64,000 nucleotides of DNA from Macrostomum lignano. Lineage: Eukaryota. The stretch covers positions 372,001-436,000 of the forward strand of contig NIVC01000027.1 in the NCBI GenBank assembly GCA_002269645.1. Reading direction: 5' to 3'. Position 1 is the first letter of the stretch. Each line of letters begins with the position of its first letter. The notes under the pieces are model-generated. The model was not told the DNA's origin. It saw only the letters and a program-made list of their open reading frames with translations, and made no database searches. This document shows, one piece after another, positions 10,651 through 50,845 of this stretch. The position numbers and the translations under genes were made by a program.

Positions 10651-10862
10651 CAGCAGAGGCTGACATCGCGAAAGTTCCATCGCCTTTCGGTGTCAGGCAA
10701 ACTCTCAGTACGCTCAGTACACTGAAGTCTCATTAGTGCACTGGCTTTTATCCAACCAGATTGTTTTTAGAAAACCGGTATAAAAGAAGAAAAGTCATTT
10801 TCATATTTTGCTACACTCATATGAGCAGCAGCAGAACTGAAATCCCATCTGCTAAAGTAACT

Positions 10863-11891: not shown

Positions 11892-12180
11892 AGTAGAAGG
11901 CATGAGGGGGCTTCTGGGACAAAATTTTTCACGTCCTCCATAATCCACCTAAATCCATCCATATTATCCCTGACAGAATACATGACAGAATACCTGACAG
12001 AATGACAGAAGGGTTTATGCTCTGAGCATAATCCACTGACATCCACCCATAGCATTTTCGAAACAATCAGAAAATAATCTGCATTCTTATCCCCACATTC
12101 AATTCGCAACATGAAACCAGATCCCTAAGACTTTAAATCATCAGCGCAGGGTCCTTTCCCTTTGAGAAAATCTAAATTTT
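11892..12180 (+). repeat. Left terminal inverted repeat
   Basis: Imperfect reverse complement of 34013-34463. Confidence 0.93.
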
Positions 12181-12212
12181 TTCTGAATCTTGATTGTCTT
12201 TTATATGCTTAT

Positions 12213-12650
12213 GAAGCTTCGTAAATCGAAGTTTTCTGTCGCTAAAAATATTCACTCCTAACCCTAACCCTAACTCCTACTAGCAGTAGGTTAAAAACAT
12301 ATTTTAGTTTTTTCTGCTTTTTCATTAAAGAGTTTACGAAGCTTCGTAAATTGAAATTTTCTGTCGCTAAAGATATTCACTCTGAACTACTACTCCTACT
12401 AGCAGTAGGTTAAAAACATATTTTAGTATTTTCTGCTTTTTCATTAAAGAGTTTACGAAGCTTCGTAAATTGAAATTTTCTGTCGCTAAAGATATTCACT
12501 CTGAACTACTACTTCTACTAGCAGTAGGTTAAAAACATATTTTAGTATTTTCTGCTTTTTCATTAGAGTTTACGAAGCTTCGTAAATTGAAATTTTTTGT
12601 CGCTAAAGATATTCACTCTGAACAACTACTTCTACTAGCAGTAGGTAAAA
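12213..12650. repeat. Subterminal tandem repeat, 117-125 bp x ~3.7
   Basis: GAAGCTTCGTAAAT starts at 12213, 12338, 12457 and 12574. Confidence 0.95.
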
Positions 12651-12798
12651 AATGTGTCGAGTCAGATTCCAATTAACAAAAAAACCGAATTATGTTGATT
12701 TAGTTAATAATTAAGCAGGCTTTTTATTTAACGATTAATCAATTTATATAAATCACCATTTGAAACACAACAGACAGCCATGTAGTAGTAACTTCTTC

Positions 12799-13149
12799 TC
12801 AGTCCATGTCATTTACTTCGTCACCTGGGTCATCTCGAACATCCACGGTCCAATTGGTTAGGCCAATCTCGGTTGTGACGCCGTCTTCGTTTACGCTTTC
12901 GCATGTCTCGAGCTCAACTTCCAAGGCCAGACGAAATTCTTCTCGATAGGCCTAGTTTTCGTAGCTCGTACTGAAGACGATTGCGCGAGCCTGCTCGAAC
13001 ATTCCTAGACTTTTTAAGTTGTCTAGCGACCGCAGACAGTCCGAAATCAGCGAAATGGAAGCAGTGTGGAATTCACATGACTTTTTAGTACCGTATACCG
13101 CCACGCCTGCATGCGTCGAAACTTTTTCAAGCGATTTAATCGAAGGCAT
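12799..13149 (-). pseudogene. Small Polinton ORF (~116 aa, acidic C-terminus) with one internal stop
   Basis: MPSIKSLEK...SYEN*AYREEFRLALEVELETCESVNEDG...DDPGDEVNDMD reads in frame across the TAG at 12952-12954. Confidence 0.5.
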
Positions 13150-13812
13150 AATGCGAGAGAAGATATAGAGAGTTAAAATCGTTTTCAAATGTACATATCT
13201 ACGCGAAATTTCTGTTACTAGCTGTTGTAATCGATCGATCAAGCCACCCCACCCTCTCTCCGCAAGCACCCAACACCAGCAAAACGAGCTAAGTCTCAAC
13301 CCCACTCTTTCCTTTCCTAAGAATGCATTGACAAAATTCCTAGCAGTACATTCGCGAAATCGACTAGAGGGCTACGTTCCCTCAGCAAATAACAGTCGAT
13401 CAACCACATACCCCCCCTTCTGCTTCTTAACTTTTCAAATGCAGCTGTCGCGTTTGGCCAGGGCTGAGAATAATAGTTAAACCCTTCCCGACTCAAGCGC
13501 CTCTCTCTACCCCCCCCCCCCATATCTTCATACCGTATAGACCAACAAGGCGGGCCACATTCCGAGGCCAAATCGGCGGGCCGAGGCCAATTCGGCGGGC
13601 CAACTGGCCTCGCAATTTGGCCAATAATCAATATCAATCAAGGAGAGAATCTCAACATACACAGACCATGCATGTGGCGGCGAAGCGGTTGACTTTTTTT
13701 TCATTTTCTGCTCTTAGCTCTCTGAAGAATGAGAATCTCTCTTGTGCGCAACTCTTTAGGGAATAAAAAACTGTACTTACTCAAATCCACACTTGCTCAT
13801 GCCCTTCCCGAT

Positions 13813-14292
13813 TCAAGCGCCCCTCTCTACCCCCAGCTCTTTCAGCAGTCTTCCCAATTCATTGTTAGGAGCGCACAAAATAAACCCCGCTCCTGAGCCT
13901 CCGCCCTCTCTCCTCGTGCACCCGCCCTCGCCTTCAACCCCCAACCCCAACTTTGTTTTACCAAAAATAACAGCTTTAACTAGCTTCCGAGCAATCGACT
14001 CACGAAATCCGCTTGAAGCCCCTATATTGTCTAGTCTCTTAAGCATTTCTTTGTCCCAACGATTCTTCTCCTCAGGAAAATCTCTATATTTAACATCGTG
14101 CCACATGCAGACAGAGTCTAGCTCGTTCACAGGCTCGTGCCCAGGATTTGGATTATTGTTTTTATCCAACTGAATTTCAAGTGGATTCAAAGGCCCGCAA
14201 TATTTATAGCCGGGAAGTGTCCAGCCTTTGTTTGGATGAGGAAGCTTTTCTATCAGTCCATGTGAATCTAACTTACCACCAGAGCGTTGCAT
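13813..14292 (-). CDS. Parvovirus VP1u-type phospholipase A2 (PLA2X-like)
   Basis: Ca-loop LPGYKYCGPLN and catalytic PVNELDSVCMWHDVKY match the parvoviral PLA2 pattern (YxGxG-like loop, HDxxY). Confidence 0.88.
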   Translation of the reverse strand: MQRSGGKLDSHGLIEKLPHPNKGWTLPGYKYCGPLNPLEIQLDKNNNPNPGHEPVNELDSVCMWHDVKYRDFPEEKNRWDKEMLKRLDNIGASSGFRESIARKLVKAVIFGKTKLGLGVEGEGGCTRREGGGSGAGFILCAPNNELGRLLKELGVERGA

Positions 14293-14322
14293 TATTTTAT
14301 TTTAAATTTTCTTTTTAAAAAA

Positions 14323-15360
14323 ATGACAGATCAGAAACTTAAAAAACTCAACTACAGCGACAAAGGATTCTTTGTAGGAAAAAATGCAGTCACCAAACTC
14401 GCAGAACTAAGTGAGGAACCAAAAGGTAAAGTAGAAAAGTGGCTCTCTAAGCAAGCAGTCTACCAAGTCTATTTCCCACCAGTAAAATTTACAAGACCTC
14501 ACTTTAGCATCTATAAACCTAATGAGGCGCACCAAGCAGATCTTCTGTTTCTCCCCAATGACTCGGGCTACAAGTATGCTCTCACAATTACAGACGTTGC
14601 CTCCAGATATAAGGAAGCGAGACCGCTTAAGACGAAGAAGTCAGAAGCAGTTGCAGCCGCCCTCCAAGATATTTATAAAAACTCACCCCTTAGTTACCCT
14701 GAAATCTTTATGACGGACCCTGGTAAAGAATTCGTGGGTGCAGTGAAATCACTTATGGAAAAGAAAAATACAGAGATTCGCTATGGCAGAAGAGACCTGC
14801 ACAGAGACCAAGCGTACGTTGAGAGATTCAATCTAACTCTAGCCAAGAGACTATTCACTAAGCAGACAGCTGAAGAGCTGAAACTAAAAAGTGGCCAATA
14901 CTATACCAAGTGGACAGAAAGACTCCCCACTGTTATAGAGCAACTGAACAATGAAGTCACACGTATGACTGGATTGAAACCATCCCATGCAATTAAACAA
15001 GACACTGTCAAACTTAAGGCAACTCATAGAACAGACAACAACACGACATCCCCACACAACACACACAACACAAAACACACCTCAAACTACCCTAAGCTTC
15101 CAGGAGTTGAATCACCATACATACTGACAAACTCTGAGTTTCTACGCTTTTTATATCTACCTGGAGAGCTAGAGAAGGACACTAAAAGAAGAGCTACAGA
15201 TCCATACTTCAGCCTTGATGTACATAAAATAGACAGACATTTTACATCCGACTCCGGTGACTATTACTTTTTATCTCAGGCTTTTAACCCTAAATCCCCC
15301 ACGCGGTCATTCACTAGAGCTGAACTCCTAGTGATACCAGCTGACACAGAAATTAATTAA
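14323..15360 (+). CDS. Retroviral-like (rve, DDE) integrase
   Basis: HQADLLFL, TDVASRY, MTDPGKEF and AYVERFNLTL give an intact D,D,E triad. True ATG at 14323. Confidence 0.95.
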   Translation: MTDQKLKKLNYSDKGFFVGKNAVTKLAELSEEPKGKVEKWLSKQAVYQVYFPPVKFTRPHFSIYKPNEAHQADLLFLPNDSGYKYALTITDVASRYKEARPLKTKKSEAVAAALQDIYKNSPLSYPEIFMTDPGKEFVGAVKSLMEKKNTEIRYGRRDLHRDQAYVERFNLTLAKRLFTKQTAEELKLKSGQYYTKWTERLPTVIEQLNNEVTRMTGLKPSHAIKQDTVKLKATHRTDNNTTSPHNTHNTKHTSNYPKLPGVESPYILTNSEFLRFLYLPGELEKDTKRRATDPYFSLDVHKIDRHFTSDSGDYYFLSQAFNPKSPTRSFTRAELLVIPADTEIN

Positions 15361-15376
15361 AATATTAAAATAAAAA

Positions 15377-15823
15377 ATGACAAAGATTGAAACCAGAACC
15401 ATCAATAAACTCAATAAAATCATTGAATCAAAGAAACCAGGTCTTATATCAATTAAAGGTATCAAAGTAAAAATCGATCCCACGCAGCAAATAGTTCAGT
15501 GTAATGAACAAAGACACAGCATCACAGATGAAAAGTCAGGAGGAATCCTACCATTAGCAGCTCTTATCCCAATCATTGCAGGCGCTGTAAGTGCCGCAGG
15601 TGGTGTAGCTGGAGGTGTAGCAACTGCTGTTAAAGCTGGTAATGATAGAGCCCACCAGCTTGAATTGCAAAAGATTGCAAGAGACAAAGGTATAACAATT
15701 AAGGCAGGAGAGGGCTGCCCCGATCGTGATGATTGTGAGCATGAAAATTCTGTAAGCAAGTCTGACATTGTCAAAGCCATCATGACACTCCACAATGCTG
15801 GGTTTACAATAATGCGCATGTGA
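15377..15823 (+). CDS. Adenovirus protein X (pX/Mu precursor)-like core protein
   Basis: GG-ILPLAALIPIIAGAVSAAGGVAGGVATAV resembles the adenoviral pX C-terminus (RGG-(F/I)LP.LIPIIAAAIGA.PG.AS). Confidence 0.75.
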   Translation: MTKIETRTINKLNKIIESKKPGLISIKGIKVKIDPTQQIVQCNEQRHSITDEKSGGILPLAALIPIIAGAVSAAGGVAGGVATAVKAGNDRAHQLELQKIARDKGITIKAGEGCPDRDDCEHENSVSKSDIVKAIMTLHNAGFTIMRM

Positions 15824-17722
15824 TGAGGTTTAAAATCCCACTTTATCCAGCTTCATGAACCTAACGCTACTTATAGGATGTAGAAACAGTTCAACTTTTC
15901 TACCAGGGTGGTCACCCTCAATTTTTTTTATATTTTAGAGAAAAAAATGCCAAAAGCCAATCCAGCAAAAGATTTAGTCAACAAATATTTTTCAAAAGGC
16001 GTCTCATTTCAAGACAAAAGTAATTTACTAAGAGAATCATGTAAACAAAAGTTTAACACCGACCCTGGTCACCTGGGAAGCTATGAAAAACAGTTGGAAA
16101 TCATCAATCAATTAGAATCCAACCAGTATGCGCCTATAAAAAATCCTGCAAAGGAACACCAAGAGAGGAGTCGCAACTTAGTTAACAAATACGAAACTCT
16201 CACTGGTGAAAAAGCAAAGTACCCACAAAATAAGCAGGAACAAGAGAAATTAGAGCAATTAATCCATTTAAAAGAGTCGGAGCTTGCCATTGAAGAGATT
16301 AATTTTGCACAGAGGAAGTTTACAGAACATTACGTAGAGTACACAATCCCAATTAAGGATACCACCGCAAACATCTTCGACTATAAAGACAGCATCCAAT
16401 CAGTTGTTGATCACACACTCAAAACACGCAAGACCTTTAAACTACAGATATCATTCAAGATTGCGTTTTATATGCCTGCAAAACCCACTGAGCATCTCGA
16501 GTATTACATGACAACAAAGGCGAAGCCATTCACCCCTACAGACACACTAGATCCTTTCCTTCAAGATGTCACTAAGAAAATTGAAGCGTTTACATCCAGA
16601 GGTTCCGGATGGGTCGTGGGAGGGATTCAAAGAGCGACTGCCATGGTCATGAAATATGACCCACTTAAAGCCTCCTCTTATATAGAGCTCCCGCATAAGC
16701 TTGCCGGCAAAAAAGCTTGCATAAATGTTAAAAATAAAGACAATTGCTGTGCTCTATGGGCAGTTCTTTCTGCACTTCTTCATGAAAGTGTCCCTCACCA
16801 CCCTGAAAGAACCTCAAATTATCAAAATTATTTCAAGGACTATCTCATCGAATGTGAAAAGAAGGGAATCAGGTTTGACAAAGGAGGCTTGGCGATTTCT
16901 CAGATCCCTAAGCTAGAAGAAGTGTTTAATAACAAAATTAGAATCACAGTCTTTGAGTGGAGTGAGAAAACTGAAAAAGTTCAACCGGTCAGATGTAGCA
17001 AAGACGTTTTAGATCCTGAGGGGAAAAGGCGGACTGTAGTGGATCTTCTAGTGATTGGTAATTTACTAGAGGAGGCTCACTATGTTTGGATTAAAGATCT
17101 CTCAAGACTCATTCACAAGCAGTTGAATAATCATCACGAGGCTGTTGCCATCTGTCGCTTGTGCCTTAAGCATTACAGTGGACTTGAACGCTTTGAAAAA
17201 CTAACAGAACATGAATTATCATGCGAGGATCACCCAACAAACTGCTCTCTTCCTTCAGCTGAAGAGAAGTATCTCCGGTTTAAGAACTATCACAAGATGG
17301 AGAAGCTCCCATTTGTTGTATATGCTGATTTCGAATGCTCAATCATGCCAGAAACTCAAAAACAAACTCCAACTCAAAAACAAACTCAAACTCAAAAACA
17401 TGTCCCCAATTCAGTAGCATATGTCTTTATTACTACAAAAGGACTTGTTGAGTATAATTATTTTTTGGAGAGCAGTGTGTGGAGCAGTTTATTGCCAGAA
17501 TGTTAGAGTTGCAAAAAGTTATTAGCACCCTTCAACCTGTTCCAATAATGATGACTGAGGAGGATGAAAGCAATTTCCTATCAGCAACTCATTGCCACAT
17601 CTGCAGGAAACAGTTAACTTGCACTGATATTAAAAACCCCACCGTTAGGGACCACTGCCACTTTACTGGGAAATTTAGAGGTGCAGCGCATAACACCTGT
17701 AATCTAAAGCTAAAATCGAACA

Positions 17723-18911
17723 ACAACAACAACAACAAAATACGCTGTCATGATGGTAAAAGTCAGCGTCACAGGGCGCGCTTCATGGCTTGGGCGCGAA
17801 CAAAGGCCGCGCCACCGGCAGTGTCCGGGGCGCCGGCGTCAGCCAGCAGACAGTCGACATAACGCCGAGTTCGCGCTTGACCTCGCCGGTAGGGTGCCTG
17901 CAGCGTGAGCAGCAGCACCTCCTGCACCGGCTGTGGGCAGTACGACTCGGCGCGGATGAGATGGCCTGCGAGCTGGAGTCGCCGACGGCGCAGTAGATCA
18001 CTTGGACGTGGCAGGCCAGCGCGGCGATAGAGTGCCGCGTTGGTGACTCGCTCGACGCCGATGTTGAAGGCGGCGCGCAGCAGACCAGCGTGCGCCGCAT
18101 CGACTTGCTGTTCGAGTGAGTCCGTCAGCGTCCAGGTCTCGGCGTTGTACAGCAGGACGGTCTCGATTACCGCCTGGAACAGCGCCGCCCTCTGGCGGTC
18201 CGGTAGGGCCTCGGACTGCAGGACTGCCCTCACAGAACGAAAAGCAGCCCAGGCAAGCCCGCGGCGGCGTCGCAGGTCCTCGCGAGCGTCTGGAACCAGA
18301 CCGCCGAGGTAGACGAACTGCTGACATCGCGGGAGTTCGGTCGCCTGCCCGTCAGCGCCTCGGCAAAATATTGCAGCCTCGATGTCGTCCGGCACGCAGA
18401 GCACAACGGTCTTCTGCGTGTTGACCACCAGGACGACACTCGCCGCAACGGCAACCAGCCTGTCCAGCTGCCGTTGGGCGCCCTCGACGGTCGAGGACAG
18501 CAGGGCGAGGTCGTCGGCGTAGCCAAGCACGCTGAGCCGCTTCTCCGGTTGACGTCGACCCACGCGTCGCTGCAGCAGAAAACCGTCGTCGTCGGTAGGA
18601 AGAGCAGTCCGCAGCACCCAGTCAAGCACCAGGACGAACAGAAACGGCGCCAGCGTATCTCCCTGAAGCACTCCGGAGGATGTCTCAAAGGAGTCCGATA
18701 GGCCGTCCGGTGTTGTCACAGCAGCTGTCGTATCACGGTACATCGCCATGACGGCGGAGATCAGCTGCTCAGGCACGTTGTACGCGCGGAGCACCATTGG
18801 AAGCACGGCTCTGACAACCGAGTCGAATGCCTTCTTGAAATCAATAAAGATTAAAATCAGTATCGACTGACGAATCCGCGCCTCCTCGATGACTCGGCGA
18901 AGAGCCAGGAT
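17723..18911 (-). mobile_element. 5'-truncated RTE-like non-LTR retrotransposon in polB
   Basis: RT motifs FIDFKKAFDSV, GVLQGDTLAP, YADDLAL. (GTT)n 3' tail. 13-bp TSD CTAAAATCGAACA at 17710-17722 and 18912-18924. Confidence 0.93.
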
Positions 18912-20886
18912 CTAAAATCGAACATTCATGATCTAACGATATTTTGTCACAACGCAAAGAACTATGACATGCATTTAATAGTTGAAAAAATCGGCATGAT
19001 TCCAGACATACACCTTGACTGCATCGCAGAGAACAAGGAGAAGTTTAAATGTGTTGATATTAAACAGGATAATTTGGGTACAGGTAAAATAAGACTGAAG
19101 GATTCATATCAATTTCTAGCTGCCAGTCTAGACGAACTAAGCAAGAATCTAAAAGATGAACAATGTACATATACAAAGATGTTTGCAAGTAAAATTTACA
19201 ACAGTGATGAATCATTTAAACTTTTAAGAAAGAAAGGCTTCTACCCCTATGAGAATATTACCGGTTATCATGTATTTGAAGAAGGTTTACCACCACAAGA
19301 AAAGTTCTTTTCAAAGCTAACAGACTCTGGAATCTCTGACAAAGACTATGAGCACGCGAAGCATGTCTATAATTACTTTAATTGTCAAAACTTCTTCCAG
19401 TATCACCTGCTTTACCTCTACACAGATGTGTTTCTGCTGGCCGATGTGTTTGAAACCTTCAGATATACCTGGTACACAGCATATGGCCTCGATCCAGCAC
19501 ATTATGTGTCTCTGCCTGCCACTAGCTGGGAATCTTTGCTTAAAATGAAATGGGATCAAGATCCAGATTGGTACATTGAACTTCTTACAGACATTGACAT
19601 GTACAATTTTGTCGAATCGTCAAAGCGAGGGGGGATCTCAATTTGCGTTAACAGGTATGCGAAAGCAAACAATCCCTACATTGAATCTTACAATAAGGAG
19701 CAGCCCTCAAACTACATTACTTACTTGGACGCTAATAATCTCTACGGTTGGGCGATGAGTCAAGATCTTCCAGTTAGAGATTTTCGATGGCTACCCTCAT
19801 CAGAACTAAAGTGGGACTTTTCATTGGCTGCCATTTATGAGGTTGATGTTTACATTCCACCAGAGCTTCACGACTATTTCTCTGACTTTCCACCCTTCCC
19901 AGAGAACATCAAGTGCCCGAAAATAATCGAAACTCCCAATGGAACTTGGCACCTGTCAGGAACAGAAAAAGAACATACAGAGAAACTAACACAGAATCTA
20001 AACAACAAGACACGTTACAAAATTCATTACAAACTGCTTCAATATTTTATCTCACTTGGTTGCAGGGTCACCAAAGTTCACCGGGCTCTTACATTTACAG
20101 AGGAAGCGTGGATGAAACCCTACATTGATAAGAACACCCAGTTTAGGACCAAAGCAACCAACGACTTTGACAAGAACCTCTTTAAGTTGGCCAACAACTC
20201 TGTCTATGGCAAGACTCTTGAGAATGAGCGGAAAAGAACAAACCTGAAACTTGTTACCTCATCAGAGCCTGCTGTTATTCAGGCAAATATGTCAAAGCCA
20301 ACATTCAAAGAACTCCATATCTTTAATAGCTACTTAGGTGTGATCATGCACGCGAAGGCGTATTCAGCATGCCAGTGAAGTATGAGACAGACTAGGCCCA
20401 TGGGCTAAGGTCTGCGATGCTTCACGCCTGCCCCTATCTTCAGCAGGTCAAGGCTGGTGGGAGGTCTGCACCCTCTATTTGCCTCTGGCAGCCGCAGACC
20501 CCCCCCCCCCACGCTGTCTTGCAAGTCGACCCAGGGTACTCGTCCCCGCGTGTGTTCAAGGCAGTCCCTAGGGCTGCTGGACAGACTGGGCTCCGGCGCT
20601 GGCGACCCTATCCAGTGGCTTCGGCCGAATTTGGGTATGCGGGTCTGGCTCGCCAACCTGCAGGCCGTGGTACTGCTCAACGTACTCTCTAATGCCTAAG
20701 GTGTTGACCGTGCCGATGGGCTGGAAGGCCGGGGAGTAGTCCGGTCGCAAGCGGTCCCCCTCCTGGTGTCGGGCCAGCCTTGAGGGTGCTATTGGCCTAC
20801 TGCCCGGTCAGGTGGAGCGGCCGGGTGGGTACCGCGCCCCTTTGAGGGTAGCCCACCAACCTTTTATCATGGCCTTCGAGCCGTCT

Positions 20887-22387
20887 ATGGATAATCAAGC
20901 TAACTCTAGGGACGGGGACCCTTCTAAACCCCAACCTTAGTCCGAAGGACCGGCCGGCCCTGCTGGCAGATCCCAACCGACTGATTCAACTGTGGCAAAG
21001 GAAGGACCGGCTGGCTCTGCTGGCAGATCCGACCAGAGCTACCAAACTCAAAATACCCAAAGACCTGCCAGCTCCGCTGGTGGATCTAAGGGAACCGCGA
21101 GCTCTGAGCCTAAAGGACCGGCCAAATCTGGCAGATCCGATGAAGCTCAGCGGGCTCGGCTTGAGCGCAAACGCGCTAAACAACGCGCCAAAAGGCAGGC
21201 CAAGAAGGGAGCTGCGGGGGCCAAAGCGGCGGCGTCCACCATGGATGCTGAAGCGACTGGAGTCCCAAGGCAACCAGGCGGGCCGGCCGGTGGAAGCTCC
21301 AGTAGTTCAGCGGCGGCGCTCCCTGGAGCTGCTGCCGCGGCTGCTGAGGCCGAAACCACGGCGCAACAAATGGCCACTGCCAACAAGGAGGTTCCTTCGG
21401 GAGCTACCTTTGCGGCGAAGGCCAAGGCCAAAATCCCGGGAGTGATCATCCAAGGTCGCGACCAGGACTGGACCACTGATCAGCTTCAAAAAGTGTGGAG
21501 TGCTGTTGACTCCTATCTGATTGAGCTGACTGTCGAGGAGGGAATCTCCATCGGCATTGAGCGGATGGTGCTGCGAAGCACATTCGTTCTTATTGCTCCT
21601 AGCAGCGAGGAGGACGCTCGGCGGCTGCTCCAGCGGCTACCGACGGTCTCCTTGGATGCTGACCTTGGCGGAGCTCTTTTTCTTCGCGAGGGCCAGCGTC
21701 CAGACGATACCCTATGTGGTTTTCGTCCCTGCTAAGAGCACCGCAGCTGGACCAGACGTTATTCGCCGGGTCCTACTGCGTCTGAACCCCGACCTCCCTG
21801 CTAGTGGACTGGTGTATCACCGTAAAGTCCGCAGGGGGGAGACGGGCAACTCAATTGTCCTCGGCCTTTCCAGCACTTGGGCGAGTCGGTACCCTAATGG
21901 ATCCTCTTTCCAGCTGGGTGCCCTCAAGCTCAAGATGCGCCGAGGAAAGTCTGCCAAAGGGAAGGCTACTGCCAACCCCGGCATCTCCGGCAAGAGCGGG
22001 GCGCAGTCTAAGGCCCAAGGAAAGGCGCAAGCCGATCCCAAAGCCAAAGCTGCATCTCGCCCCTCTGCTAGCAGCAGTTCGGCGACCGTGGTAACGGCTC
22101 CGGCCAAGCCCCGGGAACCAAACCTGCCAGTCGGAGAAGGAGTTGAGGACGAGGCCGGGTCTTCGGAATCCGAGCTCTCCTCGGCCACCTTGGTGGGGTC
22201 TGAAGGTAAAGATGCAGGTGAGGAAGCTTCCTCCATCCTGTCATCGGAGCCTGAGGACTCTGCTGGGGGGCCGGTGGGGGTGAGGAGGCCATGGACGTCG
22301 ACCAACTCCCATCTCCCAGTCAAGCCCCAGCGGCCTGGGACGAGGACGATCTGTTGTCCAAGTCTCCTTGATGGCCCTGGGCTCTAG
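20887..22387 (+). pseudogene. ORF1 (gag-like) of the LOA/R1-like element
   Basis: ATG at 20887, in-frame TAG at 20938-20940, and a frameshift near 21700 joining ORFs 20992-21735 and 21557-22387. Confidence 0.7.
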
Positions 22388-22448
22388 CCAGAAATTGCAT
22401 TTAATACAGTATGACTAAGCTCCACGCTGCCAAAGAGCGACATTCTGT

Positions 22449-25400: not shown

Positions 25401-26149
25401 CCACTGGCGTTACTGGTAAGAACATCATTTTCCATTCGGACAGCCAAGCTGCCTTGCACGCCATCAGTGGCTGCAGCACCAACTCTGCTACAGTCCTTGA
25501 CTGTATCAAACTCCTCAATGTGTTGGGTTCCGCCAACAAAATTACCCTTAAGTGGGTTCCGGGGCATGTGGGGATCCGAGGAAATGAGTTGGCTGACACC
25601 CTTGCAAAAGTTGGTGCCTCCGGCTCCTCTCTCGGCCCCGAACCTCTTGTCCCGATTCCTGGCTGTGTCATCGACTCACGCATCAAAGCGTGGATCAGGA
25701 CTCAGCACCGCTCGACTTGGGCGAACCGCACGAACTGCAGGCAATCCAGAGGCGCTGTCCCTCAGCCCTCTCACCAGCTCCGGAAGCTCCTCTTGCGCCT
25801 CTCGCGCAGAGACATCCGGGCTGCCACCATGACCCTCTCTGGTCACGGCTGCTTCTCCAGGCACCAGTACCTGCAGGGCAACGCCACCAACGCCACCTGT
25901 AGTTTCTGCAACTCAGGTGACGAAACCGCTGAGCATTTCGTCAGCATCTGTCCCGCCTTCACGCGGGCCAGACTCACTTACCTCGGGCCACACACATCTA
26001 TTACTGAAGCGTGCAAACCCGAAAACTTTAATCAGCTCATGCGCTACCTTCGGGCCACCCGCAGGGCTGAACTCTCCTTTCCAGAGAGCACCATAGCTGC
26101 TGGCGACACTGGGGGACCTCCCTGGGCGGCGCCAACCCTCCGTCCATAG
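22449..26149 (+). pseudogene. ORF2: AP endonuclease, reverse transcriptase, RNase H and C-terminal CCHC
   Basis: LQINLQH, LIQEPW, GGDLNAHH, FLDIVGAFD, GGPQGGVL, YADD, YTDGSK, FHSDSQAAL, WVPGH, CSFC..ETAEHF..C. One missing A at 23915-23917 (IPKPGK). Confidence 0.92.
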
Positions 26150-26885
26150 CGACGCGTCGGCCGTTCAGGGACTAGCGGAATGGGCGCCCGCGCCTTCCCG
26201 CTGTGTCCCCTCCGGGACAGCCCTGCAGCTAAGTCAAAGAAGTAAGTCAGGTGTGATCATATTTTACAAAACCAAGGTGACGCTGCGCAAGCCGATCTAT
26301 ACAGGTGTCACTGTTCTCGACGAATCAAAACGTTTGGTGTACCAGTTCTTCTATGGCATGAAGCAGCAGTACAAGGATAAAATGAAACTCTTGTACACTG
26401 ACACAGACAGTTTTATTATGGATATTCAAACAGAAGACATTTATCAGGACATGCTGCAGCAAAAAGATTTGTTTGACTTGTCTGAGTATGATGAATCTTG
26501 CAGGACACAGAATGGCGATCAAGTGTTTGACGCCACTAACAAGAAAGTGATTGGGAAAATGAAGGACGAGATTGCTGGTGACATAATCACTGAATTCATT
26601 GGGTTGAGAGCAAAGTCCTATTTTGTAAAATGTGAGTCGTCAGACCCAATTAAAAAATCAAAGGGAATTCCGAAACGTGTGGTTAGGAAGGAAATTAATG
26701 AAGCTGAATACAGAGACGCCTTGAATTGCAACAAAAAGACATCACATGAGTTCTCAAAGCTACAATCTAAAAACCATATTATTCACACAATTCAGCAAAA
26801 GAAGATTGGACTGTCAGGTGCAGATAACAAGAGATTCATTTTTGATGACAATATCAACAGTCTGCCGTTCGGGCATTGGAGATTA

Positions 26886-26957
26886 GGCTTAGGAGGTGGA
26901 AGTTGGGTTTAGGAGGTGGAGTTTAGGTTTAGGAGGTGAAGTTTAGGTTTAGGTTTG
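26886..26957 (+). repeat. Telomere-like TTTAGG/TTAGG(AGG) repeats at the polB 3' end
   Basis: GGCTTAGGAGGTGG...GTTTAGGTTTAGGAGGTG...GTTTAGGTTTAGGTTTG. Confidence 0.7.
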
Positions 26958-26985
26958 AGAGAAAGTTTAATAAACCTCATAAAAA

Positions 26986-27387
26986 ATGACGACAAATAAC
27001 TTTCTTGAAGATTTGGCTAACTAACTGGAAATCCCAAACTTTAGAGGAATATTTATGAGGGACACTCTGCCTGATATTCCTCTAAGAAAAGAATGCGGCA
27101 TCATGAACTTTGACACCACCGATAAGCCAGGATCTCATTGGGTTTGCTGGGTGATTGATCCCGATGGCAAGCACAAGTGTTATTACTTCGATGGCTATGG
27201 GACGGCAGTACCAGAAGAGCTAAGAAATTATATGAAGGGAAAAAATAATAAAAAAATTTATCGCTCAGACTTTATTCTCCAAGGTCTTAGCAGTGATATT
27301 TGCGGTGAGCTGTGCATGACTGTTTTGTATGCAATGACCAAAACACGAAAGACCTACAAGGAAATTATTCTTGGCTGTGTTTCATAA
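26986..27387 (+). pseudogene. Adenain-like cysteine protease with nonsense codon 13
   Basis: GSHWV (H), YFDGYG (D), LQ...DICG (Q, C). AAAAA-ATG at 26986 reads MTTNNFLEDLAN*LEIPNFRGIFMRD with TAA at 27022-27024. Confidence 0.9.
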
Positions 27388-27391
27388 GGGT

Positions 27392-28063
27392 TCATTGTGC
27401 ATTTCTCGTCGTCCTTCTTGCCAAATTTCTTGCCGAATTTCTTGCCGACTTTCTTTCCGCATAATGTTGAAAAACTTTCTCGAGTTCATTTTTCAGCTGA
27501 CTCATGTCCTCAGTACCGACCATGTTCAAGTTCATTCGAATTGATTGTTCATAAAGATCCTGAATGGTTTTGAACTCGTCCTCTGAAATGAACTTATCCT
27601 CGATTGCCCTTGAAATGTACCCTATGATTGATGTGTGCACCCCTTTCTCTTTTACTTGCTTCTCCTGTAGCTGCTTTAGTTTTTTTCGCCTGTTTCGCGC
27701 TACTGCTCCAGTAATTGCTGAAATAAGTCCACATGCAGCACCTACTGAACCAAGTGGAATTGCGATTGGGACTGTGATGGCTGGCAACACTGAGACAGCT
27801 GCAGCAGATCCAGATAGAACAGACACAGATCCTAGAATCATATTGCTGTAGTCGAAAAATTTACAGTGGTTGTCATAGCGCTTAATTTTCTTTGTGTTGT
27901 GGAAAATATTTTTTTCAAGATCATCGCGCATTTTTTGAATCTCCACCAGTCGAAACTGTTGAGAGTTACAAGTAATGACGGGGTAGAGTTTTTGCTGCTC
28001 ATATTGGGGTGCACTAGGTGCTGTGGGAGCATTCGGATCATAAAGAGAATTTTGAGCATCCAT
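27392..28063 (-). CDS. Conserved Polinton membrane protein (GasderminX-like)
   Basis: LYP...FRLVEI, a hydrophobic helical hairpin, basic RRKKLK and ISRAIED..ISEDEF. Family name recalled from adintovirus literature. Confidence 0.6.
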   Translation of the reverse strand: MDAQNSLYDPNAPTAPSAPQYEQQKLYPVITCNSQQFRLVEIQKMRDDLEKNIFHNTKKIKRYDNHCKFFDYSNMILGSVSVLSGSAAAVSVLPAITVPIAIPLGSVGAACGLISAITGAVARNRRKKLKQLQEKQVKEKGVHTSIIGYISRAIEDKFISEDEFKTIQDLYEQSIRMNLNMVGTEDMSQLKNELEKVFQHYAERKSARNSARNLARRTTRNAQ

Positions 28064-28174
28064 TTTTTAAGGGAATTTTTAAAAAAAAAATCGACAACTA
28101 GTTGGTGGTGTTAGATTTGTTTTACGGTTGATTGCTTCGTCTGCAGTGACGGCAACGGGTCTCTTCGAATTTGC

Positions 28175-28921
28175 CTATTCATTGTCTGTGAGCTCCATTC
28201 TACGCCTGATCTCAAACAAGTCGGTTGGATCACTTATTTCCCTTGTGGTCTGTGGTGGTGCCTCTTCAGCGTCAATGTTTTTGAGATTATGCAAGCGTTC
28301 AAGACGACTGATTCTTCTCAACGATTTCTGCCATTCGGTAAAAACTAAATCTACAAAGACTTTATTTGCAGTAATTCTTACTTTGATTTGATCATGCAAC
28401 GCTGTTGACTGAGTCATGAACTCTTCTAAATTCCTCACTTTACATGTATTGGTTGCGACGTTTTCTTTAATTCTATCATGCAACGCTGTTGACTGGTTCA
28501 TGAACTCTTCTAAATTCCTCACTTTAACTATGTTTGTGAAAACTCCTTCTTCAAGAATGCGCATCCGCCTATCAATGGAGTTTCTCAGAAGATTAATTGT
28601 CGATGCTAAATTTGTTCTTAAACCGTTGATTTGCGAGACTGCCGAAGTTATTTCTGACCTTAGTTCATTAGTGCTGTGATCAAACTGCGCATAAAGCTTA
28701 TCACTTTCAAACTTCTGCCTGGCTACTTTTATGCGGAGATCTTCTATGTTTATCTGTAGCTGGTGCATGGAGCGCTCTAGGGCTTTCAGTCTGTTTTTAT
28801 TCAGTTTGATCTCTGGGATCTCTTCGTCGCTGTTGATATATCGCCTGTCAAGGATGGATATTTGAGCTGATGTAAGAGCGCTGTTGCCAGAAATGGATTC
28901 ACCTGCAAAATTAATATACAT
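28175..28921 (-). CDS. Coiled-coil protein, possible fibre or stalk
   Basis: Heptad-rich 248 aa ORF with a 28-aa (84-nt) tandem duplication. Confidence 0.65.
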   Translation of the reverse strand: MYINFAGESISGNSALTSAQISILDRRYINSDEEIPEIKLNKNRLKALERSMHQLQINIEDLRIKVARQKFESDKLYAQFDHSTNELRSEITSAVSQINGLRTNLASTINLLRNSIDRRMRILEEGVFTNIVKVRNLEEFMNQSTALHDRIKENVATNTCKVRNLEEFMTQSTALHDQIKVRITANKVFVDLVFTEWQKSLRRISRLERLHNLKNIDAEEAPPQTTREISDPTDLFEIRRRMELTDNE

Positions 28922-28937
28922 CTTTTAATAGCAAATT

Positions 28938-29739
28938 TTAAATTACAGTTCTTTTTTCCTTGTTGATCATGACAAACTGATAGGGTTGGTTCCACTTTTC
29001 GCAGCAGAGGTTAACAAATTCCTCTTGTGAAATCTTTCTGTTTGAGTTTTTTGTTGGATTTATAAAATAGGCAGGCGCAATGACCTCATTGTAAAATCTT
29101 TTTAGCCTGTCCTGTGGAATGGTTGGAAACAGGAGAATCAGATTGCAGTTCCCACGAATTGTTTTGTTTGGGAGCTCGAACCAGTTCTGTGCAATGTAAA
29201 TTACATTACAATTGTTATGTCGCCCTCTTGTAAAATAGTTCTCTATCTGTTTATGTGGGCCTGTCATACAATCATCAAAGACGATCAAATGCTTTCTCCC
29301 TTTTTCTAGCTCATCTGGTTGGGGTAGAAGTTTGGTCTTTGGATCCACCTGTGGATCTCCATAGGTGAACACTTAAATGTTCTGCCATTTTTTATTGTCT
29401 TTGAGGTGCTTTGCATATTCGGCAGCAACAATTTCTGGGTTACTGGGAAGGTTTTGTTGGTTTTTAAAACATTGAATAATGTCCTCTTTGTTCAGTTTGT
29501 TTTTGCAATCCAGAAATCAGCATTTTATACTCATCTTGATACAGTGTGGGAGAGTAGATGTGCAGAGTGTCATAGTCGATAAAGCCAGGTCTAAGAAGCA
29601 TGTTAAAGACTCTGAATGTTTTACCTGAACCTGATGAACCAACAACAATGCATCTGAAGTGACTCGGGATTGACTCGTGATGCGAAAACTTAATCTGATT
29701 ACGCGTCCAGTGAGGATTGAAGTCGCTTGAAAAGTCCAT
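28938..29739 (-). pseudogene. A32/FtsK-like genome packaging ATPase, disrupted
   Basis: Walker A GSSGSGKT, Walker B LIVFDD, RGRHNNC..IYIAQ..F..P..TIRGN. Extra A near 29500-29505 and a stop or frameshift near 29373-29395. Confidence 0.93.
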
Positions 29740-29783
29740 TTTTTTCTATGATGAAATTTTTTTTAATAATAAATAATTTAGAA

Positions 29784-29930
29784 GATGTGTCATTTTGGGA
29801 CTTGGATGTGTCATTTTGGGACTTAGATGTGTCATTTTGGGACTTAGATGTGTCATTTTGGGACTTAGATGTGTTATTTTGGGACTTGGATGTGTCATTT
29901 TGGGACTTAGGTATGTCATTTTGGGACTAG
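29784..29930. repeat. 21-bp tandem repeat x7 (GATGTGTCATTTTGGGACTTR)
   Basis: Visible directly between the ATPase start and the stop of the next gene. Confidence 0.95.
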
Positions 29931-29970
29931 TCTTGTACCTTTACATTTCTTGTACCCTCGGAAAGTACCT

Positions 29971-30360
29971 TTAGTCAAATTTGAAACCACTTCCTTTTTT
30001 AATGCTTGCTCTCATCTTCTCATAGACTGCAGGGTCCACACTGTCTGGGTTTGGGGCCAGCGGGGCCAGCGGGGCCAGTGGAGGTTGAATCTCTTGTTTA
30101 GGTGTTACAGTATCTTTAATCTTTTTGGCTGCTGTGGCTACACTGCCAGCCGCTTCGGCAACGTTCTTGATGTTCTCTTTGTTCTCTCCAATGACCTTAA
30201 AAATCTTAGCCCCCTGAGCGATCAAATCGGCAAGGCCATTCCCAGAGCGTTCTTTTCTTGGATAGTGGCCTGCAGGGAAAAGTCCAGATCCGCGTTTAAT
30301 GAGATTAAGTTCCTCTTTGTCATAGTATTTGTCAATGTCTTTTTCGAAAATAAGTGGCAT
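29971..30360 (-). CDS. Small core or membrane-lytic protein with GxG cleavage-like motifs (pVI/pVII-like)
   Basis: ATG at 30360. KRGSG, RSGNG followed by amphipathic LADLIAQGAKIFKVIG, and C-terminal KKGSGF. Confidence 0.6.
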   Translation of the reverse strand: MPLIFEKDIDKYYDKEELNLIKRGSGLFPAGHYPRKERSGNGLADLIAQGAKIFKVIGENKENIKNVAEAAGSVATAAKKIKDTVTPKQEIQPPLAPLAPLAPNPDSVDPAVYEKMRASIKKGSGFKFD

Positions 30361-30376
30361 TTTTACTTGAAATAAA

Positions 30377-31555
30377 TTATTTTTTGTTGAACCGCGAAAG
30401 CAGAAGCTCTCTCGCCCTCTTATCGATGTATTTTCTCTCAAGCATTTTGTCCAGGATGTTGACAAATTCTTTTCTATACTCGTCTTTCATTCCGGTCTTT
30501 GCCGCTCCTAGAAGAACCGCTACTCGCTTGTAGATTTCAGCTATTCCTTTTCCAGATTTGGGTGGTTGGTCTTGGGGTTGTGGAGTTGGTTGGGCTTGTG
30601 GCTGCTGGGGAGGTGATCCAAAAGACTGCTCACTTTCAGAGATGGAACTGTCATGTGGCGCCTGTCTTTGTTGAGGTGTGAAAACTCTTTGCTTGATTCT
30701 GTTCATTCGATCTGGAGAGTGTTGTTCTAAGTGTTGCCAGTCTGTTGGGTGATCATTTTTATATTTAGCTACTTGAGTCGGATCTGCATTTTCCAGTTGC
30801 CTGAGTACTTCTGTAAAATGTGGCTGCTGTTGTGGCGGTTGCTGTTGTTGCTGTTGTTGTTGTGGTTGTTGTCTTATGACCTCTTCCTGATCCGGCAAAC
30901 CAAACCATTGTTTAAAGTATTTGTATTTTCTAAATCTGTTCAAGACAATCCCGTTTTCATGTAAAATTTTCAAAACACCGTTGTTCTTGAGCATATCTAT
31001 ATCCCTATCGAGAGCAAAGGTAACAAGATCTTTGTAATTTTTGAGCTGCTTTTTAGACGTATTCTCTAGATTTTTAGTCATGTAATCAAGTAAAGTTTGA
31101 GTGAACTGGATTCTTTTAGTTTTTGCGCCTTTATTGATTGAAATGTTTTCCTTTGTCACTTCAATGTTGTAATCCGCCGGTTCCCCGGTAATATTTTTTC
31201 GCCAGGCGCTAATTCCAAAAATATATTTTCCATCATCCACTACGGGGCCAAAAAAGTTATCCGTCACTTTCATCTGCACCGGTTGTCCTGGTTCCTGAGC
31301 CTGTGGTTGTCCTGGTGAAGATGGGATTTTACCCAATGTGTTTTGCAAGTGGCTCTCTTGAATATCATCAACTGCTTCCTTCACAGTGTCGAGGTTTTTC
31401 TTCGCTTCTGTGTATCCGGGTTTGTGAAATTCGGTGGCTGCTTGGACAAACTCATTGTAGGATTGTTGCTCCTTATTTATTAGCCCGGTAACTCGTTTCT
31501 CTGCTTGTGCTAGCTTCTCCAATTCAGATATCTGCTGTGTACTTTTTCGCTTCAT
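30377..31555 (-). CDS. Polinton PZ-like protein
   Basis: C-terminal KSGKGIAEIYKRVAVLLGAAKTG...EF..ILDKML...YI resembles the Polinton GxG..RL.LL....AG motif. Q/P-rich linker. Confidence 0.6.
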   Translation of the reverse strand: MKRKSTQQISELEKLAQAEKRVTGLINKEQQSYNEFVQAATEFHKPGYTEAKKNLDTVKEAVDDIQESHLQNTLGKIPSSPGQPQAQEPGQPVQMKVTDNFFGPVVDDGKYIFGISAWRKNITGEPADYNIEVTKENISINKGAKTKRIQFTQTLLDYMTKNLENTSKKQLKNYKDLVTFALDRDIDMLKNNGVLKILHENGIVLNRFRKYKYFKQWFGLPDQEEVIRQQPQQQQQQQQPPQQQPHFTEVLRQLENADPTQVAKYKNDHPTDWQHLEQHSPDRMNRIKQRVFTPQQRQAPHDSSISESEQSFGSPPQQPQAQPTPQPQDQPPKSGKGIAEIYKRVAVLLGAAKTGMKDEYRKEFVNILDKMLERKYIDKRARELLLSRFNKK

Positions 31556-31585
31556 TTCTTATTTTATTTTATTTTTAGTTAAAAA

Positions 31586-32872
31586 ATGAACGACCCACTG
31601 ACACCAGTTTTCTACAAAATTAACAAGCCTATTTTGAGTGATGATAGCACAATCAAAGCGACTCAGGTAAGAGTTCCCAGTCAGGAAAATCAGAATGAAA
31701 CTAATCTTGGTCCTGGCCAAACACTGACATTTACATACAATGGATGTTCGTCTTTGGTCAGTGTCCACAGTCTAAGGAGCGGCTTCCATATGACATTTCA
31801 ATTCAAGACAAAGGGTGGTGCGGATGCGGCTCGTGCTAACGTTGACAAGCATGATGCGGATGTGGTTCTGATCAGTAACTTTTGGGCGTACATGTTCAAG
31901 GAGTTTAGTGTATCGAATGGGAGCACTGAGTTGGAGCGAATCGCCAACTTTGGAATTGTCTATGACGCTCATTGTTTGATCGAGAATACTGATTTTATTC
32001 AATTGGGAAGTGGTGCGGGTTTTATTGCAGACGAAAAAGAAGGAGATATCAATGACAGTGGCTATAAAAATAGGAAGAAGAGATACAACTATGCATTGCA
32101 AGGTGCTGATGATGCTGCTAAGAACCCGCAGTATCGGTCTGTTGATGTATTTGTACCATTGAGATTCATGAGTGGATTCTGTAATACATTTAATCGACTG
32201 ACTAGTAACTTTAGCTACACATTTAGACTGACTAGAGATGATCGCAGTAGAGTGTTGTGGACTGGGGCGGACCACACTAGGATGGAGGTGAAGCTAACCG
32301 GAATCGAGCTGTATTTGGAAGTCATTGAGCCAAAGACTGCACTAAAAGCGGATTATCTTAAGGCAATAGAGAAGGACATTGATGTTGCATACACGGCCTA
32401 CATGTGTCGAGATGAGCGAAACGAAACTAGAACAAATATCTGCATTAAAGAGGGATCATGCAGCAATCCAAGGTATATCATTATTAATATGAGAAACCCA
32501 AATAGCATTATACGCTACATGCATGGAGACGTGCGGTCCATTCAGCATGAAATCAGTGATAATCTTTACCCTGCACTGCCACAAAATGGAGATTTCAGTC
32601 AGAACAAGATTAGCAAATTTTACAGCGAGTTGGTCGACTTGGCTGTGAAAGAGAACAATGGAATTGCTATCACTGCTCTTCAATATGGAACTCTATATCC
32701 GATGTTTGGCGCTGATGTGTCTGCCAGACAAATGCCTACTGATAACAGCCCTGTGAATATCGTGACTAACATTGAGAGGACTGTCGCAACACCCGTGGAC
32801 CTGTACATTATCTATGCATTTGAGAGGAAGGTGAAGCTTAACATGATCAACAATTCATCCAGTAAAGTTTAA
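31586..32872 (+). CDS. Double jelly-roll major capsid protein
   Basis: 428 aa, beta-rich, with DDSTI, PRYIII, YPMFGADVS and YAFER motifs. Lies next to the penton gene. Confidence 0.85.
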   Translation: MNDPLTPVFYKINKPILSDDSTIKATQVRVPSQENQNETNLGPGQTLTFTYNGCSSLVSVHSLRSGFHMTFQFKTKGGADAARANVDKHDADVVLISNFWAYMFKEFSVSNGSTELERIANFGIVYDAHCLIENTDFIQLGSGAGFIADEKEGDINDSGYKNRKKRYNYALQGADDAAKNPQYRSVDVFVPLRFMSGFCNTFNRLTSNFSYTFRLTRDDRSRVLWTGADHTRMEVKLTGIELYLEVIEPKTALKADYLKAIEKDIDVAYTAYMCRDERNETRTNICIKEGSCSNPRYIIINMRNPNSIIRYMHGDVRSIQHEISDNLYPALPQNGDFSQNKISKFYSELVDLAVKENNGIAITALQYGTLYPMFGADVSARQMPTDNSPVNIVTNIERTVATPVDLYIIYAFERKVKLNMINNSSSKV

Positions 32873-32896
32873 ATATTTTTTTTGTGGGTGAAAAAA

Positions 32897-33760
32897 ATGG
32901 AAGCTATAGCCGAAAGACTAAACAATATTATTTCGCACTCCAAGGAGAGCATTCCTATTACAATAACTGGGCGGATTAATGACTCAAACGGGATATTTGT
33001 TCAAAAATTAGAGCAGGCGATTAGCCTGGATCCAGGCGCTAATTACCATGTCTATCTTAACGACTTCACCGGTTGGTCAAACGTTCCCAATGTGATGGCA
33101 GCAAATAATAAGTTTTATTACAAATGGAAAGGTGCAGCAGCAGACCCTGTGGTATTCCATGTGAGCACGCAAAGTGTGGATACCTACAATTACTTTCTAG
33201 AAAATGTCTTTACTAAGAGAGGCCATTTTGAGACACCTGATGCGAGTAAGCCAGAGAAGAAACTGTTCCCTGTCAAACTAACCTATGATCTCACTGTAAT
33301 GAGAGTGGTCATGCAAGTTCACAAAGATGCGGAGGTTGAGTTTAAAGATGACACTTGGTATAGGGAACTGGGATTCGAGAAGAAAGTTTATAAGGCAGAA
33401 TCCGCGGCGCGGACCGCCACTCAAGCATCGGGGACTGTTAGAATGGTCCGGGAAAGTGTAAGCGGTTTGTTCTTAGCACCCAATATTGCAGACATTGTAA
33501 AGGGTTTGAATATTCTAATCAGAAGCAATCTCAGTCTTGATTGGGTATTTAAGGGAAAGCGAACGAATATTTTGTACAACATCTCCAACTCTGTTGCTGG
33601 AGGACAGATGGTGGTAGAGAAACCAAATCCAGTGAAAAGAGTTGTATTGAGTAATAAGGAGATTCACGAGATTGTGCTACAGTTTGAGACTGAAGATGGG
33701 ATGGGTGTTGATTTCAACGGTGAAGAGTTTGTATTGACGTTGATCATTGAGAGAATGTAA
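32897..33760 (+). CDS. Single jelly-roll minor capsid (penton) protein
   Basis: NVPNV..ANNKFYY, ILIRSNL, and a C-terminal I.LQFETEDG..VDFNGEEFVLTLII penton signature. Confidence 0.85.
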   Translation: MEAIAERLNNIISHSKESIPITITGRINDSNGIFVQKLEQAISLDPGANYHVYLNDFTGWSNVPNVMAANNKFYYKWKGAAADPVVFHVSTQSVDTYNYFLENVFTKRGHFETPDASKPEKKLFPVKLTYDLTVMRVVMQVHKDAEVEFKDDTWYRELGFEKKVYKAESAARTATQASGTVRMVRESVSGLFLAPNIADIVKGLNILIRSNLSLDWVFKGKRTNILYNISNSVAGGQMVVEKPNPVKRVVLSNKEIHEIVLQFETEDGMGVDFNGEEFVLTLIIERM

Positions 33761-33764
33761 GAAA

Positions 33765-34001
33765 TCACAATTGCCTAATGATTTCTGCAAAGTTATAGTA
33801 GCTGTCGTAATCGTTAATGACTACTCCATACTTATGAAACCAGTGTCTTTGGAGAGCTAGATTAATATTAGGGACATGGATATCAACGTTGGGCCAATAT
33901 TTTCTCATGTATTCGCTGCATTCAAGTTTGCATCGGTACTTGGATTTGTACAATGGATGAGGCTGAGTATAATAGGAACCTGGAGAGACAACTGGAAACA
34001 T
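33765..34001 (-). CDS. Small aromatic-rich Polinton ORF (78 aa), function unknown
   Basis: A-tract ATG like the other viral genes. Its stop converges tightly with the penton stop. Confidence 0.55.
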   Translation of the reverse strand: MFPVVSPGSYYTQPHPLYKSKYRCKLECSEYMRKYWPNVDIHVPNINLALQRHWFHKYGVVINDYDSYYNFAEIIRQL

Positions 34002-34012
34002 TTTTATTGAGA

Positions 34013-34463
34013 ATTTAATTTTTTTTTCAAAGGGTAAGGACCCTGCGCTGATGATTTAAAGTCTTTGGGATCTGGTTTCATGTTGCGAATCGAATGTGGG
34101 GATAAGAATGCAGATTATTTTCTGATTGTTTCGAAGATGCTATGGGTGGATGTCAGTGGATTATGTCAGTGTCAGTGAGCATAACGGGTATCAGTGGACA
34201 CCTGCTCTGATTCTGTCAGGGATAATATGGATGGATTTAATGGGATTATGTTCGAAGTTTTCGGAGCAAGTGCGGCCCCTCCCCTTTTTCATGATTCTGT
34301 CAGGGATAATATGGATGGATTTAATGGGATTATGGAGGACGTTTTGTGAGCGAGTGCGACCCCCCTTTTTTTCTGATTCTGTCGGGGATAATATGGATGG
34401 ATTTAATGGGATTATGGAGGATGTGAAAAATTTTGTCCCAAAAGCCCCCTCATGCCTTCTACT
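34013..34463 (-). repeat. Right terminal inverted repeat with three ~83-bp internal units
   Basis: TGATTCTGTCRGGGATAATATGGATGGATTTAATGGGATTATG at 34208, 34292 and 34374. The left TIR has one unit. Confidence 0.93.

Positions 34464-50405: not shown

Positions 50406-50845
<440 letters not shown>

Follow-up and report, generated by a model that had tools for sequence, protein, structure and literature searches.

Does a Polinton family that sits in many copies in a flatworm genome live as a virus, as a transposon with inherited virion genes, or as a record of infections from outside? The question is raised by a 64-kb stretch of Macrostomum lignano DNA (contig NIVC01000027.1, positions 372,001 to 436,000; here called the window), in which inverted termini at 11892 and 34463 enclose a set of virus-like genes. 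Coordinates without a contig label are positions in this window of C27, and C-numbers denote contigs of the animal's own genome assembly. A preliminary description, made from the sequence before any database search, had recognised a Polinton or adintovirus with a virion module and about 13 compact genes. Both points hold: Pfam matches were obtained to PLA2, rve, Adeno_PX, DNA_pol_B_2, Peptidase_C5, Pox_A32 and a double-jelly-roll (DJR)-like family, and open reading frames (ORFs), Pfam and sibling comparison give twelve core genes and one decayed arm gene within 11892–34463. The window copy by itself is ordinary, chimeric and dead, and it is the family around it that addresses the question. We favour, at roughly 70%, the reading that this family replicates as linear protein-primed DNA, recombines and re-integrates through its own rve integrase, with predicted DJR particles; the virion step is the weakest part.

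The family is a divergent Polinton/Maverick (adintovirus-like) one of known type. It has the PolB, rve integrase, DJR major capsid protein (MCP), ATPase and adenain of Polintoviricetes, and its siblings have terminal inverted repeats (TIRs) with a 6-bp target duplication, a Polinton/Maverick trait; the duplication is missing at the ends of the window copy. An alignment-based model of the MCP (mean predicted local distance difference test, pLDDT, 53.6) matched the capsid proteins of iridovirus, Sputnik, PBCV-1 and mavirus in Foldseek at E of about 1e-9 to 1e-10, bearing out the expected jelly-roll fold; single-sequence AlphaFold reached a pLDDT of 31 only. Against PF21738 the MCP scores 25.6 bits in the window (cut-off 27) and 35.9 bits in a second capsid allele described below, and natural sibling frames exceed the Pfam cut-offs for PF04665 and PF00770.

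Searched with the MCP, the genome returned 660 candidates, and among the best scorers, 98 in number, identities were 97–100%, with 96 of the 98 free of internal stops. The exact 22-base terminus pattern occurs 482 times, compared with 0 for a control pattern; the number of independent insertions is below 241, because some loci were assembled two or three times. Full-length siblings carry perfect 6-bp duplications in 16 of 22 cases, and two more match at 5 of 6 positions. Among 30 copies picked by MCP score, 13 have both ends in the fetched stretch (14.3–17.5 kb), ten of them with a perfect duplication and one with 5 of 6; among nine copies picked by their termini the corresponding counts are six and one. 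In a DNA sequencing run the summed contig depth over the element, which is not a copy number, lies far above that of the flank. None of the runs that contain the MCP–penton stretch is recorded as RNA. Three runs, from three studies, were taken by guess for RNA; their contigs extend over the element and its two long interspersed nuclear elements (LINEs), the flank being missing from them. They say nothing on expression either way, because DNA carry-over of a high-copy repeat looks alike.

Selection was measured as the ratio of non-synonymous to synonymous change (dN/dS) over 16 gene segments with 13–30 sequences each, C3969 being left out. Variants common to at least two copies gave 0.12 and private variants 0.30. 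For shared variants the MCP stood at 0.06, a value biased low by the selection of 30 copies on MCP score, the ATPase at 0.04–0.06, the protease at 0.14 and the penton candidate at 0.20, with the integrase at 0.08 and the PolB core at 0.05–0.07. Selection acts on the capsid, ATPase and protease genes, so that particles would have been needed until recently. Private variants comprise 29 stops and 407 amino-acid changes, a ratio that equals the expectation for neutral decay, so private non-synonymous changes gauge what happened after insertion; we infer a change of about 0.2% per site or less, sequencing error included. The preliminary view of a recent element in an under-sampled invertebrate fits this figure and the lack of a close named relative. 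TIR identity (82–99%) was tried as a clock and dropped, as the repeat units vary. The excess of private synonymous change means that most copies come from distinct selected templates.

It is rather unlikely, in our judgement, that the family is a capsid-independent transposon, amplified in germ cells by PolB and integrase alone and carrying its virion genes as baggage of past selection. The MCP and ATPase ratios are as low as those of the integrase and PolB core, and the second capsid allele has an open natural frame, both of which speak against such a transposon. Speaking for it are the broken MCP frames in most terminus-picked copies, the status of virion and episome as predictions, and the report, in the accessible part of Widen et al. 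(10.1101/2022.07.12.499685), that transcripts of nematode Maverick genes went undetected.

The copies are mosaics. Correlation of pairwise distances between genes is 0.76 within PolB and falls to 0.00–0.04 for ATPase with U392 (a 392-residue protein), ATPase with MCP, and integrase with U392. A second MCP/penton allele is present in 2 of 39 sequences, with amino-acid identities of 83% for the MCP and 79% for the penton candidate; this module (MCP at about 82% nucleotide identity) lies on C66 and C298 inside otherwise typical family genomes.

Between TIR and core lies a subterminal arm of 1–2.8 kb, often with a fast-evolving gene. Clustering at 80% identity sorts the 33 arms above 1150 bp into 20 types, three of which are found on the left in some copies and on the right in others. 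Sixteen arms match the profile of one divergent gene family, eight facing inward and eight outward; this profile was built from seven of the 16, chosen by eye, and each of the seven core members, when left out, still beats 500 of 500 shuffles, C2059 narrowly. Five further arm ORFs scored no better than shuffles against the profile, and several other arm types carry ORFs unrelated to this gene family. No Pfam match above cut-off was found in 13 arm ORFs, no PDB match below E=0.07 was obtained, and the sole database match of an arm protein was the protein itself, 100% identical and annotated in Macrostomum lignano.

Much of this diversity could also be supplied by repeated germ-line entry of a circulating exogenous virus, with the integrated copies as dead-end samples. 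The private dN/dS is well below 1, as it would be if most copies came from distinct selected lineages; the 20 arm types in 33 arms and the two capsid alleles agree with such a source, and MCP relatives at 71–77% lie on other assembly contigs. Yet all 20 sequencing runs containing the MCP–penton stretch are from the same organism, MCP alignment scans of IMG/VR and JGI contigs returned no relative, and the short non-autonomous derivatives with perfect duplications described next suit mobilisation inside the genome. We consider entry from outside improbable.

Two insertions are palindromic, one on C276 (assembled again as C1652) and one on C633, each made of two head-to-head right halves. Their arms of 4.7–4.8 kb are 99.6–99.85% identical; the insertions carry two MCP–penton pairs and perfect duplications, and retain nothing of integrase, PLA2 or pX and little or nothing of PolB. 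Palindromes account for three of five loci with two nearby MCP genes, representing the two insertions; the other candidates, on C1098 and C2829, were rejected as adjacent copies. Short deletion derivatives of 0.6–3.6 kb likewise have perfect duplications. Non-autonomous derivatives of miniature to middle size lie at C124:22982-23697, C289:58541-59180, C32:1150965-1151833 and C544:473028-476600, those on C124 and C289 being one insertion in two assemblies. Integration of the palindromes and short derivatives must have been in trans. In snap-back or defective genomes of linear DNA viruses, one genome half is duplicated head-to-head and both termini are retained; the flatworm palindromes differ in lying fixed in the germ line between perfect 6-bp duplications, and a template switch in replication is the simplest origin that we infer for them.

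In the favoured reading, linear DNA primed by a terminal protein would recombine with co-replicating templates and be re-inserted by the rve integrase. The presence of many distinct templates in the same germ-line nuclei could produce cores of mosaic make-up, the pair of capsid alleles and the exchange of arms between ends, while template switching in strand-displacement replication could yield capsid-only palindromes, then integrated in trans like defective genomes.

Several points weigh against this reading. Particles, episomes and transcripts are predicted here from the genes, and the MCP model is of low-to-medium confidence (TM score about 0.35–0.4). Selection on shared variants dates the ancestors of the copies, not today's activity. 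The gene-distance correlations come from non-independent pairs and do not amount to a formal test, and gene conversion after insertion is another possible source of mosaicism, the window copy itself being a post-insertion recombinant. Loci assembled more than once (C27/C3969/C622, C276/C1652 and C124/C289) reduce the count of insertions. A whole PolB frame is found in none of the 30 MCP-picked copies (about 23 span the gene; the longest frame has 1059 residues) and in none of the nine terminus-picked copies, of which only one has a whole MCP. The proposal that intact siblings could complement the window copy is sound as to the number of siblings and conjectural as to their integrity, which is blurred by the assembly: between two assemblies of one insertion there are 15 one-base indels and three substitutions in 7.9 kb, a proportion that points to assembly error. 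With one-base errors this common, the number of truly intact copies is not readable from the assembly.

The window copy had been taken for a single insertion, near-complete. At its two ends stands the same 30-mer, inverted and with one mismatch, and longer inverted arms lie inside; the flanks of 11892–34463, CTCTGG on the left and AAAGAG on the right, do not form a target duplication. On the left the junction is precise to the base relative to empty sites on C622, C3252 and C217, and the right flank comes from a different site: the partner of AAAGAG is a second terminus at C27:369430, which is 14.5 kb upstream of 11892 and 2.57 kb before the window. By comparison with these contigs, what had been read as one element is a composite of two, namely an insertion B interrupted at 2868 by 9 kb of host DNA and the left 3.3 kb of a copy A. 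The window is laid out as follows (LTR, long terminal repeat; RT, reverse transcriptase).

1–2868, plus strand: inner left half of insertion B (PLA2, integrase, pX-like, PolB N-terminus), 99.4% identical to the uninterrupted C622 copy.
2869–11891, no strand: host DNA of a second locus (site A) inside insertion B, 94–98% identical to C217:295-311.6 kb.
11892–12170, plus strand: left terminus and TIR of copy A (AGTAGAAGGCATGAGG...), precisely inserted after CTCTGG.
12209–13800, no strand: variable subterminal arm with a 119-bp tandem array and the decayed arm gene.
13813–14292, minus strand: parvovirus-like PLA2 protein, 159 residues, not fused to pX (PF08398, E=5e-14).
14323–15360, plus strand: rve integrase, 345 residues, frame open (PF00665, E=1.6e-9, above cut-off).
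15377–15823, plus strand: pX-like core protein, 148 residues (PF05829, Adeno_PX, E=4.5e-7).
15947–26912, plus strand: protein-primed PolB of Alpha-like type with an Endonuclease VII domain, in pieces (PF03175, DNA_pol_B_2, E=1.9e-15; PF02945).
17722–18911, minus strand: 5'-truncated non-LTR retrotransposon in PolB (RVT_1; 12-bp duplication CTAAAATCGAAC), presumably RTE-like, not in the C622 copy.
20348–26248, plus strand: full-length APE-RT-RNase H LINE in PolB (12-bp duplication AGGTGTGATCAT), common to the C622 copy.
26986–27387, plus strand: adenain-like maturation protease (Peptidase_C5) with an early stop (PF00770 just below cut-off, above it in a sibling).
27392–28063, minus strand: 223-residue protein with a hydrophobic hairpin (hydropathy) and a coiled coil, weakly SLATT-like.
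28175–28921, minus strand: coiled-coil protein, 248 residues, length varying among copies (sequence profile scans, sibling frames).
28938–29739, minus strand: A32/FtsK packaging ATPase (PF04665, Pox_A32, just below cut-off, above it in a sibling).
29971–30360, minus strand: 129-residue protein (U129) with three [KR]xGxG motifs (motif scan; shared-variant dN/dS 0.06).
30377–31555, minus strand: 392-residue protein (U392) with several alleles (median 8%, up to 29% nucleotide difference).
31586–32872, plus strand: DJR MCP, 428 residues, open (Pfam DJR-like match, structure model).
32897–33760, plus strand: penton candidate, 287 residues, open (position, co-variation with MCP).
33761–34463, minus strand: right TIR of insertion B with 84-bp repeats, then AAAGAG (867 bp at 92% to the upstream left end).

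C622 carries insertion B without the interruption. Relative to that copy, 13823 to about 15250 differs by about 7% and the remainder by about 0.2%, with four substitutions in the 2.5 kb after about 15250, which places the crossover from A to B near the 3' end of the integrase gene, at about 15050–15250. The junction at 2868 has 2 bp of microhomology. We read the interruption as templated repair: after its insertion, two LINEs would have entered copy B on C27, and so would a 14.5-kb segment (9 kb of host DNA and the left end of copy A), the latter probably through repair synthesis that switched away at a microhomology and came back through homology close to the 3' end of the integrase gene. On the evidence of this locus, copies may drive local rearrangements of the host genome.

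Two facts weigh against the composite: the 2868 junction is present on one contig only, and near C27:323 kb the synteny with C622 breaks off. A false join of two haplotypes, made in assembly through the repeat, would be in line with the single occurrence of the junction, with the absence of the reciprocal inversion product (the right junction of copy A, looked for in the assembly and not found), with the resemblance of the host segment to C217 (94–98%) and of its surroundings to C622 (99–100%), and with the frequent indel errors. However, the junction is non-homologous apart from the 2 bp, a kind rarely made by assemblers, both halves of B around it match C622 at above 99%, and the terminus of A is base-precise relative to three empty sites. 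We regard such a misjoin, which would concern the window copy only, as doubtful, and keep to the composite. The synteny break, about 46 kb upstream of insertion B, may itself be a further rearrangement or a misjoin. A 98.8% identical sister of the large LINE lies at C622:108508-114404, 1 kb from the empty site A. Copy B, with the same LINE in it, is about 90 kb away, and the proximity may be chance or may have to do with the rearrangement. In the arm of insertion B, a 143-residue ORF (C27:370707-371138) has no score against the arm-gene profile.

Within the composite, the arm gene of the window is a decayed, internally deleted copy at about 12800–13090 on the minus strand, and C186 carries the same arm type at its right end. 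Capsid genes and integrase had been called intact, and PolB, protease and ATPase disabled. MCP, penton candidate and integrase are indeed open, and PolB and protease are broken: PolB has a frameshift near 17460 and the two LINEs, from which siblings are free at these sites, and the early stop of the protease recurs in C3969, a second assembly of the same insertion. The verdict on the ATPase needs revision. Its frameshift near 29500 is confined to this contig, being absent from C3969, and many siblings have a frame of 266 residues; the PolB frameshift is absent from C622, and each of the two frameshifts may be an assembly error. Copies on C422 and C2023 carry a related LINE (93% at the 5' end and 64% in the RT region to that of the window) at different positions, and many siblings have other insertions.

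Several candidate entry proteins had been proposed; the proteins in question are accessories of known adintovirus type (PLA2, pX and a weak SLATT-like match) or unassigned. The 223-residue protein matches NF033634 (SLATT-like) of NCBIfam at E=0.007, below cut-off, and its Atlas neighbours, viral or mollusc hypothetical proteins at 0.93, are weak. The penton candidate had no match in Pfam or PDB sequences, and its Atlas neighbours are viral proteins at 0.98, with recognition below threshold. NCBIfam and PHROGs scans gave weak or coiled-coil matches only. The [KR]xGxG motif occurs eight times in the window proteins compared with 1.6 in shuffles (1 of 5000; the motif was chosen after it had been seen); it is a candidate protease site, and the 129-residue protein a likely protease substrate.

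The host DNA around the element includes a tandemly duplicated segment (5663–6570 and 10700–11614, 95% identical) of a dispersed multi-copy family found on C462, C1424, C217 and other contigs. It holds a short secreted-looking ORF at 10821–11084 with no Pfam match and what we take to be a WSC-like motif. Right of the element, a 182-residue host ORF (34650–35198, minus strand) has an N-terminal hydrophobic stretch and no Pfam match, and 50400–64000 is a dense satellite block (4-, 19-, 35-, 39-, 47- and 69-bp units) with strong strand skew.

We then asked how the family stands among known relatives. A PolB search gave at least 5,814 relatives at E≤1e-30, with a best identity of 47%; the best MCP identity is 77%, to assembly contigs, and no named hexon was among nine close MCP matches or 20 clusters looked up. 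No described family matching the element at high identity, which the preliminary description had named as an end to its novelty, came up in these searches. A literature search over titles and the starts of abstracts, Repbase and subscription journals lying outside it, found no description of this Macrostomum Polinton family.

Alpha and Beta adintoviruses were defined by Starrett et al. 2021 (PMC8502044), where the Corynactis coral adintovirus, an Alpha, stands in panel A of Fig. S2. Its PolB is 39% identical over 99% of a 469-residue piece (E=5e-106) and 28% identical at the N-terminus, in the alignment of which OTU-like Cys/His residues can be picked out by eye, with no profile match. In a 32-row tree made without a Beta outgroup the flatworm PolB has a long branch (1.84, median 0.24). 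Similarity to Corynactis supports an Alpha-like PolB, this being a comparison with no Beta reference. As far as the available text of that paper goes, Alpha adintoviruses share a PF03175-type PolB, rve integrase, adenain, FtsK ATPase, DJR hexon, PLA2 and pX domains and inverted terminal repeats with the flatworm family; they differ in a PLA2X fusion, in place of which separate PLA2 (minus strand) and pX (plus strand) genes flank the integrase here, also in siblings. Further Alpha traits are an OTU domain at the PolB N-terminus and a hexon and penton that group with Mayetiola-class proteins. Because PLA2 and pX are not fused, we assert no genus. No Pfam match to the Beta accessories GasderminX and cupiennin was found, the 223-residue protein having its weak SLATT match only.

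A variable slot between left TIR and integrase is already described for nematode Mavericks in the accessible part of Widen et al. There it holds captured host-like cargo, whereas the flatworm arms carry a single family of highly divergent genes without introns, which may lie at either end and point either way, and in comparison with these Mavericks no fusogen gene was recognised in the flatworm family. Pierid butterfly polintons, according to the portion of the Pannagram report at hand (10.1101/2025.02.07.637071), have likewise been active recently, contain LINE insertions, include derivatives that lack PolB, and bear long inverted repeats in which the hexon is duplicated; they have 2-kb TIRs around otherwise full elements, in contrast to the 4.7-kb gene-depleted palindromes found here. 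Mosaicism in this group is described in the available part of Barth et al. (10.64898/2026.10.13.758929). A survey (10.1101/2025.04.19.649669), in the sections open to us, reports Orthopolintovirales insertions in a rhabditophoran flatworm and near-identical expansions as uncommon among assemblies of high content.

The copies form a frozen population sample, and their mosaic cores, capsid alleles, end-swapping arms and palindromic defectives bear on the mode of replication. In the literature accessible to us, particle formation by animal Polintons has so far been deduced from gene content and modelling; with a family so young, so rich in copies and under selection in a laboratory flatworm, the particle question becomes testable by observation alone. 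More tentatively, the flatworm germ line might host a Polinton virus population that is replicating and recombining at present, with two capsid types, a hypervariable host-interaction gene on an end-flipping arm, and integrated packaging-only palindromes that act as defective-interfering genomes. If so, direct observation of the Polinton virion cycle, and of an arms race with the host, would become feasible in M. lignano, an animal that can be cultured.

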